From: Bacteroidia bacterium | Lineage (GTDB): Bacteria; Bacteroidota; Bacteroidia; UBA4408 | Assembly (NCBI GenBank): GCA_043778625.1 | Contig: JAYWFU010000128.1 | Location: 54,528-118,527, forward strand | Reading direction: 5' to 3' | DNA: 64,000 bases | In this document: piece after piece, positions 33,855-40,830 of the stretch | How the letters are laid out: every line of letters begins with the position of its first letter | Numbering within the stretch: the first letter of the stretch is position 1 | Made by a program: the position numbers and the translations under genes | Notes under the pieces: model-generated | Told to the model about the DNA's origin: nothing | Seen by the model: only the letters and a program-made list of their open reading frames with translations | Databases searched by the model: none

Positions 33855-36800
33855 ATGACAATGAAGAAAAAATTACTTACCCTCGTATTTTCACTAATCA
33901 TACTAAATAGTTTTGCACAAGTAGCCACTTGGACTAATGGTGGTGGCACTAATTTATTTAGCACTCCGCTTAACTGGAGTACTGGCATAGTTCCAACTAC
34001 TGCCAACGATGTGCTCTTTGATGGTTCTACGGCAGCCACATGTATTATTGACCAAAACGTAAGTGTAAAAACAATAACTGGTAATAGTACCTACAACGGT
34101 GCTATTATGTTTAATGCTGGCTCTACCATAACTACCAACACCGATTTTACTTGGAATAGTAGCACCACCATTACAGGCAATACAGGTAGCGTAACTATTG
34201 GACGAAACTTTTTTATGAGCGCAGGTAGCTTTATTGCAGGTACGGGTACAATAATGGTTATGGCTGCCTATGCCCAAAACGGAACAACCAATACCGTAAA
34301 TTTATCCGCAGCTGGTTTGGTTACTTATACCACCACATTTATGTTACAAAACGGAACGTATATAGCGCCTGCTAACGAAACTCACAATGGTAATTTTACG
34401 GTATCGGGTGGTACATTTACACCCAATAATGGCAATGTGCGTTTTGTGTCGCCTAGTAGTACTGTTATAGCCACTAGTGCTACTAACGCTGCTATAATTA
34501 CTAATACTCAACCATTTTACAATTTAATATTCGAAAACTCAACTATTGCTCCAGCTAACTTATTTAGAACCTATGCAGTAAGCGGTATAGTTACTGTAAA
34601 CAACGAATTAATTTATGATTATGGTGCAACTTTAGCTAACCCAAGTATTATTACTAATAGGTCAGGTGCAACAGGTACTATTGTACTAAAAAAAGATTTA
34701 CGCGTAATTACGGGTTCTACTCGTCGTAATTACGATGGTGGTTCAGCAACTATTGAGTTAAATAGTTCGTCAACTCAAACCTTGTTTATTAATAACCTCA
34801 ACAATGGTTATACGCTTTGTAATGTAAGTGTTACAGGGCCAGCACGTACTATACAAAATACAAGCTCGCCGTTTCAAACTCATCAGTTAAACTGCATGAG
34901 TTTTACGTGTGCTGCCAGTGGCTTTATTACAATGAACACTAGTTTAAATTTAAAAGGCGATTTAACCGATAATGGTAATTTAATATTTCCTTCGTCACAA
35001 ATTACTTATTTTAGAGGCGATGCCAAAAATCAAAATATTATTACCTCAGGCGAAATATCGTTTTCTACTCTGCGTATTGTAAACGGAACGCCTTACTCAA
35101 TTATACAACAAGGCAATGTGGCTGTTAGAGATTTTATGGCGTTTGCTTCGGGGGCAACACATAATGTAAATGGCAGAGTACTAACATTTAAATCAGTAGC
35201 GGTAGGTGGTAATTCTGCAAAAACAGGTATGCTCACCGATTTAACATTGTTTCCTACGGCACAACTAATAGGTAACTTTACGGTGGAACGTTTTTTAAAA
35301 GGTGGTACAACGGGTTGGGTATTATTAGGTTCGCCGTTTGGATCACAAAATACGCTAAATGATTGGAAAGATGATTTTGCAATGAGTGGTTTTACAGGTA
35401 GCACGGGCAATACGTTTCCTGCATTTACATCAATGTATAGTTACGACGAAACTCAGCCAGGTGCCGTGGGTGCTGATGCCAAATATATTGCACCAACTAA
35501 TATTACTAATACAATAGGTACAGGTAAAGGTTGGTGGGCTTATGTAGGTACTGCGTTAAATACTACTACTGATATAACATTAGATGTTACTGGTGCTTTA
35601 ACGTCAGGCATTAACAGAAACAACGTAAACATACCCGTAACCGCTACGCCCAACAATGGTGCTATACCCAACGCTGATGACGGTTGGAACTTAATAGCAA
35701 ACCCTTATCCAGCCTCGTTAGATTTTAAATTATTTAGAGCAAGCAATGGAGGCTTAGGTTTGGGAGCAAGTATATTTGCCTATAATGCTGATTTAGGGGC
35801 TGACGCTACTTATAACGATGCCACAAGTATATCAAGCCCTAGTGTGTTTAGCGGTGGTATAAGTCAGTTTTTAACAAGCTCAAGGGCCTTTAACGTGCAA
35901 GTAACAAGTTCAGGTAACTTAGTGGCGCAAGAAAACCATAAACGTGTATCAGGTGCTGGCGATAACATGCCTCTATGGCGTGTAGCCACAGCAGATAGTG
36001 CTACACAGTATTTTAGAATATTTATGCAAAATAATACTGATAACCGTGTGAATGATTGTGTACTTAATTTTAACGACCTTGCCACCACTGGCATTGACGA
36101 TTACGATGCACTTAGAACAAAAACACTAGTAGATAACCCACATGATATGTTATTAATGACCAAGCTTAACGGACGAGATTTTGCCATAAACTCAATACCG
36201 TTAGATACCATTAACATAACCAACTTACCGCTTAGTACACGTGTGGGCACAACAGGTTCGTACACTATTAATGCTAGTAACTTAGCTGGTATAGTACCTA
36301 ATAATTACTGCATTAAGTTAGTGGATTATAAGCTAAACACCACTATTAATTTGCGTAACGAAAGTTATACTACCGTATTAGACTCTAACGATAATGCTAC
36401 CTATCGTTTCAGTATTGTTATTGAACCCAACGCTACTGCCTTAAACGTTACGGCTAGTGTTAGCGTGCCTGTTAATAATTTAACTAATGTGCAAGCAAGT
36501 GTAAATAGTGCTAGTAATTTTAATTACTACTTAATAAACACAACTACTGGTACTAAAGTAGATTCGGTAATGAATAATAACACCGCCCAGTTTAACAATG
36601 TGGCAGCAGGCTATACTTACAAAGTACAAGCTGTGCAAGTGGGTGGAGCTATATGCTCAGTAGCCGAAACCATGGTTGAAATAGTAGCCAACGTTACCAA
36701 CATACACACCAATGCCACTAAAGCACTACAAAGCTACTATGCTAACGGAACTATTGTGGTTAAAACCAATGCTACTTACGAACCTGCTACTATAACAGTA

Positions 36801-36956
36801 CACAATATGTTAGGGCAATTATTAACTAGTAAAAAAATTACACTTAACGGACAAACTGAATTAGTTGTACTAGGCGATATTGCTACGCAAAACGTGTTGG
36901 TAACAGTAGTTTCCAACACTACTAATTATAGTAACAAAATTACAGTAATTAAGTAA
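33855..36956 (+). CDS. Large secreted T9SS-type surface protein
   Basis: Signal peptide; TW..GG...NWS.G.VP start; beta-helix-like T/G/N-rich region; GWNLIANPYPASLD; CTD-like end (VHNMLGQLL...KITVIK). Confidence 0.75.
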   Translation: MTMKKKLLTLVFSLIILNSFAQVATWTNGGGTNLFSTPLNWSTGIVPTTANDVLFDGSTAATCIIDQNVSVKTITGNSTYNGAIMFNAGSTITTNTDFTWNSSTTITGNTGSVTIGRNFFMSAGSFIAGTGTIMVMAAYAQNGTTNTVNLSAAGLVTYTTTFMLQNGTYIAPANETHNGNFTVSGGTFTPNNGNVRFVSPSSTVIATSATNAAIITNTQPFYNLIFENSTIAPANLFRTYAVSGIVTVNNELIYDYGATLANPSIITNRSGATGTIVLKKDLRVITGSTRRNYDGGSATIELNSSSTQTLFINNLNNGYTLCNVSVTGPARTIQNTSSPFQTHQLNCMSFTCAASGFITMNTSLNLKGDLTDNGNLIFPSSQITYFRGDAKNQNIITSGEISFSTLRIVNGTPYSIIQQGNVAVRDFMAFASGATHNVNGRVLTFKSVAVGGNSAKTGMLTDLTLFPTAQLIGNFTVERFLKGGTTGWVLLGSPFGSQNTLNDWKDDFAMSGFTGSTGNTFPAFTSMYSYDETQPGAVGADAKYIAPTNITNTIGTGKGWWAYVGTALNTTTDITLDVTGALTSGINRNNVNIPVTATPNNGAIPNADDGWNLIANPYPASLDFKLFRASNGGLGLGASIFAYNADLGADATYNDATSISSPSVFSGGISQFLTSSRAFNVQVTSSGNLVAQENHKRVSGAGDNMPLWRVATADSATQYFRIFMQNNTDNRVNDCVLNFNDLATTGIDDYDALRTKTLVDNPHDMLLMTKLNGRDFAINSIPLDTINITNLPLSTRVGTTGSYTINASNLAGIVPNNYCIKLVDYKLNTTINLRNESYTTVLDSNDNATYRFSIVIEPNATALNVTASVSVPVNNLTNVQASVNSASNFNYYLINTTTGTKVDSVMNNNTAQFNNVAAGYTYKVQAVQVGGAICSVAETMVEIVANVTNIHTNATKALQSYYANGTIVVKTNATYEPATITVHNMLGQLLTSKKITLNGQTELVVLGDIATQNVLVTVVSNTTNYSNKITVIK

Positions 36957-37040
36957 CCTAGTATTTTATAACCCAAACTAATTTTAATAGTGTGTTAAAT
37001 TTAACGTTCTATTAAAATTAGTTTTTAGCTTTTAACAGCA

Positions 37041-39098
37041 ATGAAAACAATGAAAGCAATCAAAATAATTATATTGTTTTTATTGTTTGGTATAGCAAAC
37101 GTTAATGCCCAAAATAATGTAGGTATAGGTACAACTACACCTAATGCTAAAGCTGTACTGGAGCTACAAGCTATTGATAAAGGTTTTTTGGCACCACGCA
37201 TGAGTGCCGTGCAAATGAACGCTATAACAACACCACCTAATGGCTTGCTAGTGTACAACACTACTGTTAATTGTTTTAATTACTGGAATAGTGTTACCAC
37301 AACTTGGGTAAATATGTGTGCAAGCACTGGCACTACTGGAGTAAGCAATAGCGGCGATACTGTAATTATTAATTTATTAAAAGTAGATAGTGCATTTATT
37401 ACCAACTTGTTTGCCACATACATAAAGGCTGACAGTGCGTTTATTAAAAATATAATTAGTAATTATATTAAAACGGATAGTGCTTTTATTCACTTACTGC
37501 GTAGCGATACTGCTTACATTAAAACATTAATAACCAATACTATTAACGCGCACTACATTGTAACTGATAGCATTAATGCTGGTTTTGGACGCTTTGATAG
37601 CATATATGTAAACGGACAAAACTTACAACAATACATAAGCACATTATTAAGTAATAAAGACACGGTGGTGTTAAAATACCTGCAAACTGATAGCATACAA
37701 ACCTTACTAATAAAGGCAGATAGTGCCTACATTAAAAACTTACTGGCTAATACAATTACTGCTACGTTTATAATTACTGATAGTATTAAAGCAGCCTTTG
37801 GGCGTTTTGATAGTTTGTATGTTGGGGGTAAAAACATATTACAAACAATTAGCGACAGTATTAAAGCACAAGCATGGTTGCTAAAGGGCAACACTGCTAC
37901 TACAACTAATTATTTGGGTACAAACAATGCGCAAGATTTAGTGTTTAAAACCAACGGGGTTGAAAACATGCGCATACTCAATACAAACGGTAATGTAGGT
38001 ATTGGTACCACTACACCTGCATTTAGGTTGCACGTACCTGCAGGTTACATAGGTACTGATTACATCAACACTACCGATAACTCCGTTAACACAGGGGTTA
38101 CAGGCATTATGATAAAAGCTGGCGATAATTTTTTGCGTACAGGTACAGCAGCCGCTATTAATTCTTTTTTAGGAATAACAGCACCAGGCGGCGATAACTT
38201 AGGCAACCATTTTGCAACAACTACATTAAATATGAATGCTAACTTTATTACTAACGCACAAGGTAGCTCAACATTTGCACAAAGTAATAATACCTCTACT
38301 TCATTTGTTGATGCCCCTATACAATTACGTGAGGCACAGTTTGGTGGGGCAGGGTTTATAGCTCCTCGCCTAAGTTTTCATTGGGCAGGTGTGGTAGCTT
38401 CGCAAATAGGCATAGAAGCCAGCGGGCGAATAGCCATACGTAATAACCCAGGTACAGGCTACGAAAACTTTGTGGCCAACGAAACCTATGCCAATGGCTG
38501 GTTTAGAAACATAAACTCAAATACAGGTTTGTATAACGAAACTAATTTTACTGGAATATACTCGCCAAGTGTAGGGGTTATGGCTATTTTTAACAATGGT
38601 GTATTAGGCATTAAAACAATTACGCCCACTGCCGACCTTGATGTAAACGGTACAGTACGTGTACAAAGCCTACCTGCAGGCGCTAATAACGAAAGCATAG
38701 TAACCGTTGATGGTGCAGGAAACTTACACAAAAAACCAGCAGGCTTTGGAGGTGCTATCTATGTAGGGACTTTTTATTCGGGTAACACAGGAGCTCCACC
38801 AGCTTCGCCGCCTGTTAGTGGCTATTTTACATCAGCTTCAGCTTATAATTATAGTTGTGCTCCCGTTTGTAGAGATGTTGTTACAGTTAATTTTCCAGCT
38901 TTACCTAATACAAATTACGTCGTAATCTGCACTCCCGTTTGCAATACTTGCACCACAGATTTCGCTGCAGATTTTTCAAATGAAATACGTACACCATTAA
39001 TTTATCAAAAAACTACTACTAGTTTTAAATTAATGGTTGAAGAGACTGGCAACGCTACACAAGACTTAACATGGGATATTGTTATTATTAATTATTAA
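37041..39098 (+). CDS. Phage tail-fibre-like secreted protein with a D(S/T)x repeat block
   Basis: Signal peptide; NVGIGTTTP twice; KGFLAPRM...GLLVYNT; WLLKGN...LGTNNAQDLVFKTN; duplicated repeat block; fibre-tip-like C-terminus. Confidence 0.75.
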   Translation: MKTMKAIKIIILFLLFGIANVNAQNNVGIGTTTPNAKAVLELQAIDKGFLAPRMSAVQMNAITTPPNGLLVYNTTVNCFNYWNSVTTTWVNMCASTGTTGVSNSGDTVIINLLKVDSAFITNLFATYIKADSAFIKNIISNYIKTDSAFIHLLRSDTAYIKTLITNTINAHYIVTDSINAGFGRFDSIYVNGQNLQQYISTLLSNKDTVVLKYLQTDSIQTLLIKADSAYIKNLLANTITATFIITDSIKAAFGRFDSLYVGGKNILQTISDSIKAQAWLLKGNTATTTNYLGTNNAQDLVFKTNGVENMRILNTNGNVGIGTTTPAFRLHVPAGYIGTDYINTTDNSVNTGVTGIMIKAGDNFLRTGTAAAINSFLGITAPGGDNLGNHFATTTLNMNANFITNAQGSSTFAQSNNTSTSFVDAPIQLREAQFGGAGFIAPRLSFHWAGVVASQIGIEASGRIAIRNNPGTGYENFVANETYANGWFRNINSNTGLYNETNFTGIYSPSVGVMAIFNNGVLGIKTITPTADLDVNGTVRVQSLPAGANNESIVTVDGAGNLHKKPAGFGGAIYVGTFYSGNTGAPPASPPVSGYFTSASAYNYSCAPVCRDVVTVNFPALPNTNYVVICTPVCNTCTTDFAADFSNEIRTPLIYQKTTTSFKLMVEETGNATQDLTWDIVIINY

Positions 39099-39105
39099 AT
39101 AATAA

Positions 39106-39639
39106 ATGCTCAACAACCGCTATTTTATACTACTTACATTACTTAAAGCATTAGGGCTGTATGTATTGTGGTTTGTAGTGTATGATTTGTGGTTGCACCC
39201 TTTAGGTAAGTTAGATAGATGGGCTATTAATAGCATAAGTATAACTGCCAGCGGTGTATTAAAATTAATGGGCTACACACTACTACCAGAGCCTCCGCCC
39301 GAAGAGGTGATACGCACCATAGGTATTGATGGCACACATGGCTTGTGGATTGGCGACCCTTGCAACGGCTTAACCATTATGGCACTGTTTGCAGGTTTTG
39401 TGCTAATAATGCCAGGTAATTATAAAGCTAAATTATGGTACATACCATTAGGGTTAGCCGTATTACATTTAGCCAACATATTGCGTGTAGTGGGTTTGTG
39501 CTTGGTGTTAAAACATTACCCAACCTCTTTAGAGTTTAACCATACCTACAGCTTTACTATTGTGGTGTATAGCATTGTGTTTGCCTTGTGGATGTACTGG
39601 ATAAACAACCACTCGTTTACCACAACTAAAGCTAGTTAG
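39106..39639 (+). CDS. Exosortase/archaeosortase family protein (XrtX-like)
   Basis: Multi-TM; catalytic-type Cys (DPCNGL), Arg (NILRV) and His (FNH). Confidence 0.85.
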   Translation: MLNNRYFILLTLLKALGLYVLWFVVYDLWLHPLGKLDRWAINSISITASGVLKLMGYTLLPEPPPEEVIRTIGIDGTHGLWIGDPCNGLTIMALFAGFVLIMPGNYKAKLWYIPLGLAVLHLANILRVVGLCLVLKHYPTSLEFNHTYSFTIVVYSIVFALWMYWINNHSFTTTKAS

Positions 39640-39645
39640 CAACAA

Positions 39646-40830
39646 TTATTTGGTTTGTAGCTCTTGCTCAATGGCTTTGCGCAACTCAGTTAAAAATGGA
39701 AACCCTACGGTAGCATATTCATACTTGCCATCGTTAAGTATTTCGTTGTTATTACAATATATACTTGCGGTTAAATAGTAGCGTAGTCCTTTTTGTTTAT
39801 TTTCGATATAGGCACAATCGCCAAGGAAACCATAAGCCATAGCCACTTTGTTGTACACACTATATCCTATGGGGAGTTGGGCTTTTTCGGTATCGTGAAA
39901 AAAATATTTATTGTACGTACTTACATACTTGTTACTATCGGTATACGCCAGAAGCCCTGATTGATAGGGGGTATGGAGTAAACTATTTTTTAGCAACGCA
40001 ATGTGTTTTTTATTTACAACATTAGTTTGTTGTGCAAATAAATCTTGCATTAATTGGTGTAGTTCGTCAATGGCTATATAATTTGCGTACGAAAAATCGA
40101 GCCCTCGTTTAATTAATTTACCATTAGCAATATACCCACGCCCTACAATTGCATTTTCGTTTTTATGATATTTGTATTTTGATTGTACTGCAAATGTGGT
40201 AATAATAGAGTCGGTGTTTGCATTAATATAACGCACATTATTGTACAATGATACAGGGCCTGTGTTACGTAATTGCGTAGTGTCGCAAGCGCCTAGTTTT
40301 TTGTTGATGAAGGATTTTTGCAAGCGCATTTTTTGTAATTGTGCGTTCAAAAAATCTTGCCCCATAAGTTCGTATAGCATATTGTAAGCCGTATTATCGC
40401 TAACGGTAAGCATACGTGTAATAATATTAGCGAACGAATCATCGTATAATAAGCTATCGTACACTGCGTTAGTTGCAGTAAAACCACAGGCTATATCACG
40501 CTTACGAATACATATAAAAGTACTGTCGGTAATACGCTCTTCGCCTATAGCGTCCAAATAATTGCAGGCAGCAATAGCGGTAGGTAACTTAACAAAACTT
40601 GCAGGGTAGTAGTACTCGTTTAAATTACCGTACTCGTAGGTAAGGGTGGGTTCGCCTTTAATGATAGGGGTTAGTAGTATTTTGAGTTTATACTTAGTAG
40701 GGTTACTCAATACCTTGCGCACCACAGGGTTTGAGTTTTTTTTAAGTGTGTTTTCAATAAAAAATTCGCCACGCTGCGCACTACTACTAATAGTAATAAA
40801 TAAAATAACTATAATAAATAAAGTGCGCAT
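39646..40830 (-). CDS. Serine hydrolase, class A beta-lactamase-like fold
   Basis: PASFVK (SxxK), VSDN, NKVAMAYG; signal peptide. Confidence 0.8.
   Translation of the reverse strand: MRTLFIIVILFITISSSAQRGEFFIENTLKKNSNPVVRKVLSNPTKYKLKILLTPIIKGEPTLTYEYGNLNEYYYPASFVKLPTAIAACNYLDAIGEERITDSTFICIRKRDIACGFTATNAVYDSLLYDDSFANIITRMLTVSDNTAYNMLYELMGQDFLNAQLQKMRLQKSFINKKLGACDTTQLRNTGPVSLYNNVRYINANTDSIITTFAVQSKYKYHKNENAIVGRGYIANGKLIKRGLDFSYANYIAIDELHQLMQDLFAQQTNVVNKKHIALLKNSLLHTPYQSGLLAYTDSNKYVSTYNKYFFHDTEKAQLPIGYSVYNKVAMAYGFLGDCAYIENKQKGLRYYLTASIYCNNNEILNDGKYEYATVGFPFLTELRKAIEQELQTK

Follow-up and report, generated by a model that had tools for sequence, protein, structure and literature searches.

A predicted exported fibre of a Bacteroidia bacterium in whose shaft every aspartate lies in a Bacteroidota O-glycosylation sequon

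We analysed a stretch of 64,000 nucleotides from contig JAYWFU010000128.1 of a Bacteroidia bacterium (assembly GCA_043778625.1), hereafter the window, which contains at 37041..39098 on the + strand an open reading frame (ORF) encoding a fibre-like protein of 685 amino acids (P0002). All the aspartates of one segment of this protein, the shaft (37356..37862), lie within the O-glycosylation sequon of the Bacteroidota. The protein bears the precomputed Pfam label PF26696, named PTL_trimer, 'phage tail like trimerisation region', in the Atlas output and listed there with no position within the protein. Local Pfam and NCBIfam scans of the 685 residues returned no family, the local Pfam copy being one that does not hold PF26696.

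The protein could be divided into five successive parts, all encoded on the + strand. The signal peptide MKTMKAIKIIILFLLFGIANVNA (37041..37112), read from the sequence by eye and with a crude rule, is followed by a glutamine at position +1; the junction of MKTMKAIKIIILFLLFGIANVNA with QNN shows the n-, h- and c-regions typical of signal peptides, with type I cleavage, and the glutamine fits the Q-rule of the Bacteroidota (PMC10653852). The signal peptide leads directly into a conserved N-terminal domain of about 75 residues (QNNVGIGTTTP...W..MC; 37113..37340), which is shared with dozens of paralogues and reached in the AlphaFold2 (AF2) model a predicted local distance difference test score (pLDDT) of 83-89 over residues 51-90. 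The shaft itself consists of block 1 (residues 106-206; 37356..37658), made of 5-residue units with seven D-S/T-hydrophobic sites and ending in TDSINAGFGRFDSIYVNGQN, and of block 2 (residues 207-274; 37659..37862), with six such sites and the end TDSIKAAFGRFDSLYVGGKN...SDSI. The following neck (residues 275-340; 37863..38060), which reads AQAWLLKGN...LGTNNAQDLVFKTN...GNVGIGTTTP, is the most conserved part of the family; residues W279, G283, N284, G293 and G320 were invariant in 54 sequences, and its AF2 pLDDT was 78-90. The C-terminal tip (residues 341-685; 38061..39095) belongs to no known family, the Atlas look-up giving no name for it, and is kept at high identity in the relatives P0003 and P0007; it shows no recognisable type IX secretion system (T9SS) sorting domain, and the Pfam scan at E <= 0.01 found no S74 domain either in the tip or elsewhere in the protein. 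Taken together, the gene probably encodes a chromosomal, Sec-exported, homotrimeric fibre resembling a phage tail fibre.

Translation of the shaft returned 169 residues with 13 aspartates, located at positions 106, 116, 131, 146, 156, 176, 186, 207, 217, 227, 247, 257 and 272 and reading DTV, DSA, DSA, DSA, DTA, DSI, DSI, DTV, DSI, DSA, DSI, DSL and DSI respectively. All 13 thus have the form D-(S/T)-(A/I/L/V), exactly as listed in a preliminary description of this DNA. The same description had noted that the sites are mostly spaced at multiples of five and that the shaft is made of two homologous blocks, and both observations were reproduced: 11 of the 12 intervals (10, 15, 15, 10, 20, 10, 21, 10, 10, 20, 10 and 15 residues) are multiples of five and both blocks carry the end TDSI.A.FGRFDS.YV.G.N. 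The two block ends share 23 of 41 residues (56%) and 60% of their nucleotides, a divergence indicating that they are old and not recent copies. The shaft is free of Glu, Pro, Cys, Met and Trp, and none of the 15 aspartates located outside it in the same protein falls in a sequon.

The sequon density was then compared with that of the proteome, using as background 2406 crude, non-overlapping ORFs from the own genome of 3.24 Mb. Only 3643 of the 43,762 aspartates (8.3%) were found in a canonical sequon and 14.6% were followed by Ser or Thr. A score of 13 out of 13 is far beyond chance if the sites are independent; they are not, since a single repeat unit has given rise to all of them, and conservation across relatives is the stronger evidence. 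Among 53 homologues the canonical sequon occurred in 428 of 540 shaft aspartates, compared with 91 of 1123 (8.1%) elsewhere in the same proteins, all these sequences being related and their counts not independent. We also examined 43 related shafts, cut out as the stretches between two flanking motifs, in which 396 of 421 aspartates (94%) were followed by Ser or Thr; 291 were canonical, 395 fitted a broadened motif admitting S/C/G/F at the third position, and Glu made up 0.1% of the residues. The serine codons were uninformative, AGY being used for 57 of 59 serines after Asp, for 74 of 85 other shaft serines and for 56% of the serines of the genome.

The same 43 shafts revealed the unit of which this region is built. 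Spacings between successive D-S/T sites were multiples of five in 319 of 353 cases, with values of 10, 15 and 20 found 103, 105 and 94 times, and the shafts of paralogues differed by insertions or deletions of 5, 10 or 15 residues. When units starting with Asp were aligned in register, the second residue was Ser or Thr in 99% of 321 (a count anchored on D-S/T by construction) and the third was S/L/A/I/V. Units without Asp carried Asn at position 1 in 58% of cases and had an equally hydrophobic third position (A 27%, L 26%, I 18%), while in block 1 the first position of the unit, i-2, was hydrophobic in 16 of 17 instances. These sequence features suggest that the shaft consists of 5-residue units related to pentapeptide repeats, with the order hydrophobic, x, small/hydrophobic, Asx/K/H, x. 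The D-S/T-hydrophobic motif would then be part of the repeat itself, since D-S/T are the turn residues and the residue after them is the conserved hydrophobic position. Two subfamilies of shafts were distinguished, the type found in the window (DSAFIKNL...) and a 20-residue type (V-DTSITNVAIINNATINLLKV) whose third residue is mostly Ser (DSS/DTS). In the orthologue P0003 the N- and C-terminal parts are those of the window protein (56% overall identity) and the shaft is of the 20-residue DTS/DSS type, which indicates that shafts are exchanged as cassettes.

Repeats of the form DSA(Y/F)I, with spacings of 10 or 15 residues, were also found, among the weaker matches of the shaft profile search, in five long proteins devoid of a signal peptide (P0163, P0207, P0177, P0179 and P0174). 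The first four matched tail-fibre or baseplate families of PHROG, and P0174 matched none labelled tail. P0163 has a C-terminal Peptidase_S74 domain and is encoded on a viral contig next to genes similar to gp8 and gp9 of the baseplate of a T4-like phage, whose nearest cultured relatives match at only 25-32%. Phage fibres are assembled in the cytoplasm, and the five proteins bear no export signal; there DSA(Y/F)I is no target of a periplasmic transferase, and the motif would thus be structural in origin. A periodic DS pattern is therefore, judging from these repeats, in itself no sign of glycosylation. The degree to which the motif is enforced was very different in the two groups. Only 133 of the 298 aspartates (45%) in the five phage-type repeat regions were followed by Ser or Thr, against the 94% of the exported shafts; among phage-type units starting with Asp (anchored as above), Ser or Thr came next in 78 of 106 and Gln, Asn, Lys or another residue in 28, against 99% Ser or Thr in the exported family. 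The 28 units indicate that Ser or Thr after Asp is no structural necessity. The preliminary description had held that the occurrence of the same DS periodicity in phage fibres from non-glycosylating hosts would speak against glycosylation. The objection holds in part: the periodicity does occur in signal-peptide-less, T4-like fibres, and the strict D-S/T context of the aspartates does not.

The tail fibres of Firmicutes phages that matched the phage-type repeat are built of 5-residue AxIxx units, with D-S/T at only 6 of 28, 4 of 38 and 4 of 48 aspartates, and units of this length seem to be common in the fibres of phages. Extended series of them, such as AQIANGAITDAQIGSLAVGT, were observed at loci from phages of Lactobacillus, Christensenellales and Bacillus (L028, L029 and L030), where the match to the phage-type DS repeat is weak and the D-S motif is missing.

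A relationship to proteins of solved structure emerged from searches with the repeat regions of relatives. The repeat region of the phage-type protein P0207 matched the pentapeptide-repeat chains 4yfo (E 6.4e-13) and 2j8k (E 3.5e-8) of the PDB, P0163 matched 2j8k at E 8.6e-5, and the subfamily-2 shaft of P0080 had 2j8k as its top, weak match (E 0.039). In the inspected stretches of these alignments D-S occupied positions i+1 and i+2 of the pentapeptide and the next residue fell on i-2. Positions i and i-2 of pentapeptide-repeat proteins point inward and the others outward; by analogy the Ser and Thr of the shaft sequons would lie at the surface, with the third residue of the sequon in the core. 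The spacings and the insertions or deletions of the exported shafts display the 5-residue periodicity of pentapeptide repeats directly, and their inward positions are assigned by this likeness.

In order to evaluate the quaternary structure, three copies of residues 100-340 were modelled together. The ipSAE values of three runs were 0.83, 0.82 and 0.80, compared with 0.00 for the best of three controls, the pLDDT at the partner was 77-93 and at least 78% of the contacts agreed between runs. Residues 112-186 were all in inter-chain contact, as were most of those from 231 to 263, and the pairs of lowest error, at 278-334, mark the neck as the most confident interface. Of the solved one-chain pairs 20 of 30 attained the ipSAE mark, as did 1 of 23 single chains, in a calibration made on two copies and with other alignments, so that its counts hold only roughly for three copies. 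The AF2 monomer of the whole protein had a mean pLDDT of 54.9, with values of 34-51 across residues 101-190, and its shaft and tip were too poor to be used. In the relative P0109, which has the same layout, the shaft is replaced by the GXT repeats of a collagen triple helix. A homotrimeric intertwined stalk is therefore supported as far as models can show.

The fold of the shaft could be defined less closely. The AF2 monomer of the relative P0080 (mean pLDDT 51.4) showed alternating strands at 60-72, and no PDB structure matched this model in Foldseek at E <= 0.001; the best value was 0.35, and the weak matches, mostly beta-helices, were given no weight. Owing to the strands of P0080 and to the likeness of relatives to pentapeptide-repeat beta-helices, a beta-rich structure is likely. 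Of the trimeric beta-helical shaft put forward in the preliminary description, the fibre shaft and the trimer were sustained by the three-copy model (ipSAE 0.82) and by the collagen, S74 and Collar modules of relatives and paralogues, whereas the beta-rich nature is only likely and no solved fold was matched. The regular, in-register ladder of glycans envisaged at the same time found no support. Counted in 5-residue steps, the sites fall at 0, 2, 2, 2, 1, 2, 1 and 0, 2, 1, 2, 1, 1 modulo 3 in the two blocks and are equally scattered modulo 4. On a three- or four-sided helix, as judged from residue spacing, they would thus be distributed on all faces and round the whole shaft instead of forming a single aligned ladder.

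The possible modification of the shaft was considered in the light of the general O-glycosylation system of the phylum, for which we relied on PMC8550257 and PMC12871550. According to these, the sequon reads D(S/T)(A/I/L/V/M/T), with S/C/G/F also admitted at the third position in T. forsythia, where DSS and DTS sites are glycosylated (PMC8550257); export is a prerequisite, the occupancy of common motifs is nearly complete, engineered motifs become glycosylated, and a sequon bias of the host proteome has been used as a sign of a glycosylation system (PMC12871550). Such a bias was detected in the own genome. Sequons reached 1.74 times expectation in 929 signal-peptide proteins, 1.70 times in the 900 left after removal of those with the fibre motif and 1.15 times in 1301 cytoplasmic proteins, the two classes having been assigned by crude rules, while an E-(S/T)-x control was flat (0.042 in exported and 0.041 in cytoplasmic proteins). 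The fibre protein combines a Sec signal with 13 canonical sequons in a soluble region, residues 106-272, as a substrate of this system would.

The reading we favour is that an inherited structural motif coincides with the sequon, so that the exported shaft would be heavily O-glycosylated, and we assign to it a probability of about 0.5. According to it, every second to fourth unit of the shaft would present two turn residues, Asp-Ser/Thr, followed by the hydrophobic first position of the next unit. The repeat type would have been inherited and be used also by tail fibres assembled in the cytoplasm, and the exported Bacteroidia family would have confined its aspartates to the D-S/T-hydrophobic context. 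With 13 sites on each chain and 39 on the trimer, many would most likely bear O-glycans and form a coat round the stalk, which would plausibly shield it against proteolysis and maintain its solubility and extension, with the C-terminal tip held off the cell.

Several points weigh against this reading. Glycosylation of the shaft is a prediction, and a purely structural reason would be sufficient for a periodic D-S-hydrophobic motif, as this also occurs in the phage fibres. The link between the window shaft and the phage-type repeats is weak, with E 6e-6 to 8e-4 in the profile search and a probability of 68% over 42 columns in the hhalign comparison of the window shaft profile (A2) with P0163. 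The exposure of Ser and Thr is deduced by analogy with pentapeptide-repeat proteins; profile A2 matched no pentapeptide-repeat structure in the PDB at E <= 1, its sole match being an irrelevant dehydrogenase (E 0.85), and the Pfam Pentapeptide family (PF00805) was not found in the window protein at E <= 0.01. The neck may pass the trimer test by its likeness to solved fibres, and the roughness of the ipSAE calibration, the relatedness of the sequences behind the family counts and the crude sorting of exported from cytoplasmic proteins lower the weight of the corresponding figures. Scans of the protein against Pfam and NCBIfam found no T9SS or other outer-membrane sorting signal, and the oligosaccharyltransferase of the phylum has, according to PMC12871550, not been identified, which leaves no marker gene for this genome.

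The alternative that survives best is purely structural. Asp-Ser/Thr might serve as a turn or cap, for instance as an Asx/ST turn that neutralises the sole acidic residue allowed in the shaft; the match to the sequon would be coincidental, and the sites would be unglycosylated or bear glycans without a role. We consider this explanation tenable and rather improbable. It would account well for the DSA(Y/F)I repeat with its 10/15 spacing in the signal-peptide-less, T4-like fibres and for the third position being as hydrophobic in units without Asp as in those with it; the 58% of Asn at the Asp position in other units suggests an Asx ladder, and the shafts of subfamily 2, that of P0003 included, carry mostly DSS or DTS and so lie outside the canonical motif. 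DSS and DTS are, however, glycosylated in T. forsythia (PMC8550257). A turn that tolerates Gln, Asn, Lys or other residues after Asp in 28 of 106 phage-type units does not explain why Ser or Thr follows in 99% of the units of the exported family, and with the near-complete occupancy described for exported proteins in PMC12871550 the escape of 13 exposed sequons would be unusual.

An extension of the glycosylated reading goes further, and we regard it as speculative: the turn motif derived from phage-fibre repeats might have become an encoded, periodic glycosylation code, with Asp kept in the stalk only as a sequon. Should this hold, which is doubtful, about 39 O-glycans per trimer would decorate a stalk of about 500 residues in the manner of a mucin-like 'bottle-brush'. 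Glycans of 9-10 sugars, as those of B. fragilis and T. forsythia, could conceivably make roughly half of the stalk carbohydrate by mass, and the glycan density might, again tentatively, be set by the number of D-S/T units in the shaft cassette.

A different arrangement of the same units is a monomeric, four-sided beta-helix of pentapeptide repeats with 20 residues per turn and D-S/T lining the corners. The 5-residue periodicity, the exact 20-residue repeats of subfamily 2 and the sequence matches of relatives to monomeric pentapeptide-repeat structures would be in keeping with it. Nevertheless, the AF2 monomer was poor in the shaft (pLDDT 34-51), the P0080 model showed pairs of one long and one short strand instead of four short strands per 20 residues, and the three-copy model was confident, with all of residues 112-186 in inter-chain contact. 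Moreover, spacings of 10 and 15 occur as often as those of 20, collagen repeats occupy the same slot in relatives, and the central residues are small (S/T/A/I). The consensus of the central position in pentapeptide-repeat proteins is L/F. On these grounds a monomeric helix is unlikely.

The gene neighbourhood was also analysed. Upstream lies a gene for an exported protein of 1033 amino acids (33855..36956, + strand), recognised as an ORF and as a conserved neighbour of xrtX in related genomes, and downstream, 7 bp after the stop codon of the fibre gene, the gene of exosortase XrtX (39106..39639, + strand; NF046081, 187 bits with a cut-off of 170). Two related genomes of Bacteroidia have xrtX immediately behind the orthologue of the 1033-residue protein, about 85 bp with a terminator-like hairpin separating the two; the window differs in that the fibre gene stands between them (gaps 36957-37040 and 39099-39105) and the hairpin is gone. 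From this gene order the conserved pair is the 1033-residue protein and XrtX, and the fibre gene appears as an insertion. A functional link between the fibre and XrtX was considered and rejected, their adjacency not being conserved in relatives. The next gene (39646-40830, - strand) encodes an exported protein of 394 amino acids of the Beta-lactamase2 family (PF13354, E 3.6e-17), which scored 18 bits and remained far below the class A beta-lactamase cut-off of 200 bits. In the Pfam and NCBIfam scans of these three neighbours no phage gene was found to adjoin the fibre gene.

A prophage or virion tail-fibre gene instead of a cellular surface protein is very improbable: relatives are labelled tail fibre or phage tail and the neck and repeats resemble phage fibres, yet the protein begins with a signal peptide and has Gln at +1, no phage gene adjoins it, 49 family ORFs are scattered over the genome, none of 50,697 phage records was matched by the shaft in tblastn at E <= 0.01, and PHROG returned only one weak family of unknown function.

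These 49 ORFs of the own genome carry at least one of the modules of the protein (N-domain, shaft, neck or tip), and 35 of them matched the N-terminal query. At least 45 partial paralogues of the protein are thus present in this genome. Examples are C17:26581-30702, C72:13299-18801, C151:35968-37389 and C104:52905-57194; several stand at contig ends, which suggests that the family probably breaks the assembly. Relatives and paralogues add an S74 chaperone (PF13884), Collar (PF07484), collagen (PF01391) or LVIVD (PF08309) domain, or have no known tip. Names such as 'tail fiber domain-containing' and 'phage tail protein' are given to relatives in the source databases, and those with a named organism are Bacteroidia; cluster look-ups for the taxonomy of 20 distant matches added few names.

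When 1.84 billion representatives were searched exhaustively with the profile, only 118 proteins reached E <= 0.001. The shaft type of the window occurred at 11 loci of two other species genomes, both of them metagenome-assembled genomes (MAGs) of Bacteroidia, and, with the own genome and two weak matches counted, in 3 of the 401 genomes sampled from the phylum. The DNA pattern DSA(F/Y)I-x5-DSA(F/Y)I, with heads 10 codons apart, occurred in 23 stretches among 185,579 species genomes; of the 14 that were translated, only those of two Bacteroidota MAGs (L048 and L051) lay in long repeat-bearing ORFs and the rest in short low-complexity frames, the nine others being five loci of two related Bacteroidia MAGs and four further Marinobacter loci. 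Outside the phylum, the neck query gave six weak matches in 401 Pseudomonadota genomes, attached to other stalks with D-S/T at background level (26 of 181 aspartates); the shaft of 5-residue units was present in none of these six, so that they offer no like-for-like comparison. The hits P0161 (salmonid) and P0188 (arachnid) were discarded as false positives consisting of plain tandem repeats, DSAFIGTVQT or DSAKVDFTKV. As such repeats reach E < 0.001 with the shaft profile, its scores are inflated and weak matches need a check by eye.

Other exported repeat proteins came to light in these searches. Four metagenomic proteins with signal peptides (P0131, P0132, P0171 and P0192) contain 10-residue repeats D-(S/T)-I-(Y/F)-S-x-x-x-x-x, with D-S/T at 106 of 115 aspartates, and two of them weakly match a PHROG tail-fibre family. 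In the Bacteroidales MAG L051, a 641-residue piece of an ORF carries about 17 decapeptide repeats DT(T/A)(F/Y)(V/I)NNYIH, with Asp only in D-T; its end looks like a T9SS sorting domain, and it is another exported repeat protein.

Should the predicted glycosylation hold, no other single protein would be known to bear so dense and regular an array of the Bacteroidota O-glycan, and the shaft would be a natural scaffold in which the number and spacing of glycans are written in a simple repeat. It would also open the questions of the role of the glycans (for example protease shielding, stiffness or spacing of an adhesive tip), of the timing of the transferase with respect to trimer folding, and of whether host-encoded, phage-like fibres of Bacteroidota are surface organelles like the MAT (mosaic adhesive trimer) fibres of Bdellovibrio. 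If it is not, a caution follows, as periodic D-S-hydrophobic fibre repeats would match the sequon for structural reasons and inflate glycoprotein predictions based on it. Among the papers listed by word searches of open-access text, none describes a fibre with a periodic sequon shaft or MAT-like fibres in Bacteroidota.

Compared with known systems, the shaft shares the 5-residue unit and its two inward hydrophobic or small positions with pentapeptide-repeat proteins such as Np275/Np276 (PDB 2j8k) and the designed 'beta1' proteins (4yfo). It differs from them in having Asx at i+1 instead of i-1 and small central residues, and the three-copy model would make it an intertwined trimer instead of a monomeric four-sided helix. 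The tail fibres of uncultured, T4-like aquatic phages (P0163, P0207, P0177 and P0179; contig L058) have the same repeat head, D-S-A-(Y/F)-I, with the same 10/15 spacing; unlike the shaft protein, they are virion proteins without a signal peptide, in which Asp is common outside D-S/T. With the substrates of Bacteroidota O-glycosylation, such as the S-layer proteins TfsA and TfsB of T. forsythia, the protein has in common export and several D-(S/T)-(A/I/L/V/M/T) sites. In the known substrates (PMC8550257, PMC12871550) these sites are scattered, whereas the predicted glycan sites of the shaft are periodic, number 13 in 169 residues and include every Asp.

The closest architecture is that of the MAT fibres of Bdellovibrio bacteriovorus. 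In the accessible part of the report by Caulton et al. 2024 (PMC10769870) these comprise 21 fibres with a signal peptide, an invariant N-domain, an intertwined trimeric stalk and swapped tips with or without S74. Like the NS74 subgroup of MAT fibres, the protein of the window is host-encoded and has its signal peptide directly before a conserved N-domain; a long, trimeric and beta-rich stalk, as modelled here, variable C-terminal tips and a large set of paralogues (49 ORFs, against 21 fibres) complete the resemblance, which is one of arrangement. The two belong to different phyla and their N-domains measure about 75 residues here and about 130 in the MAT fibres. The stalk of the Bacteroidia fibre consists of 5-residue units in which the sequon of the Bacteroidota recurs throughout, a construction that this part of the report does not describe for MAT fibres.

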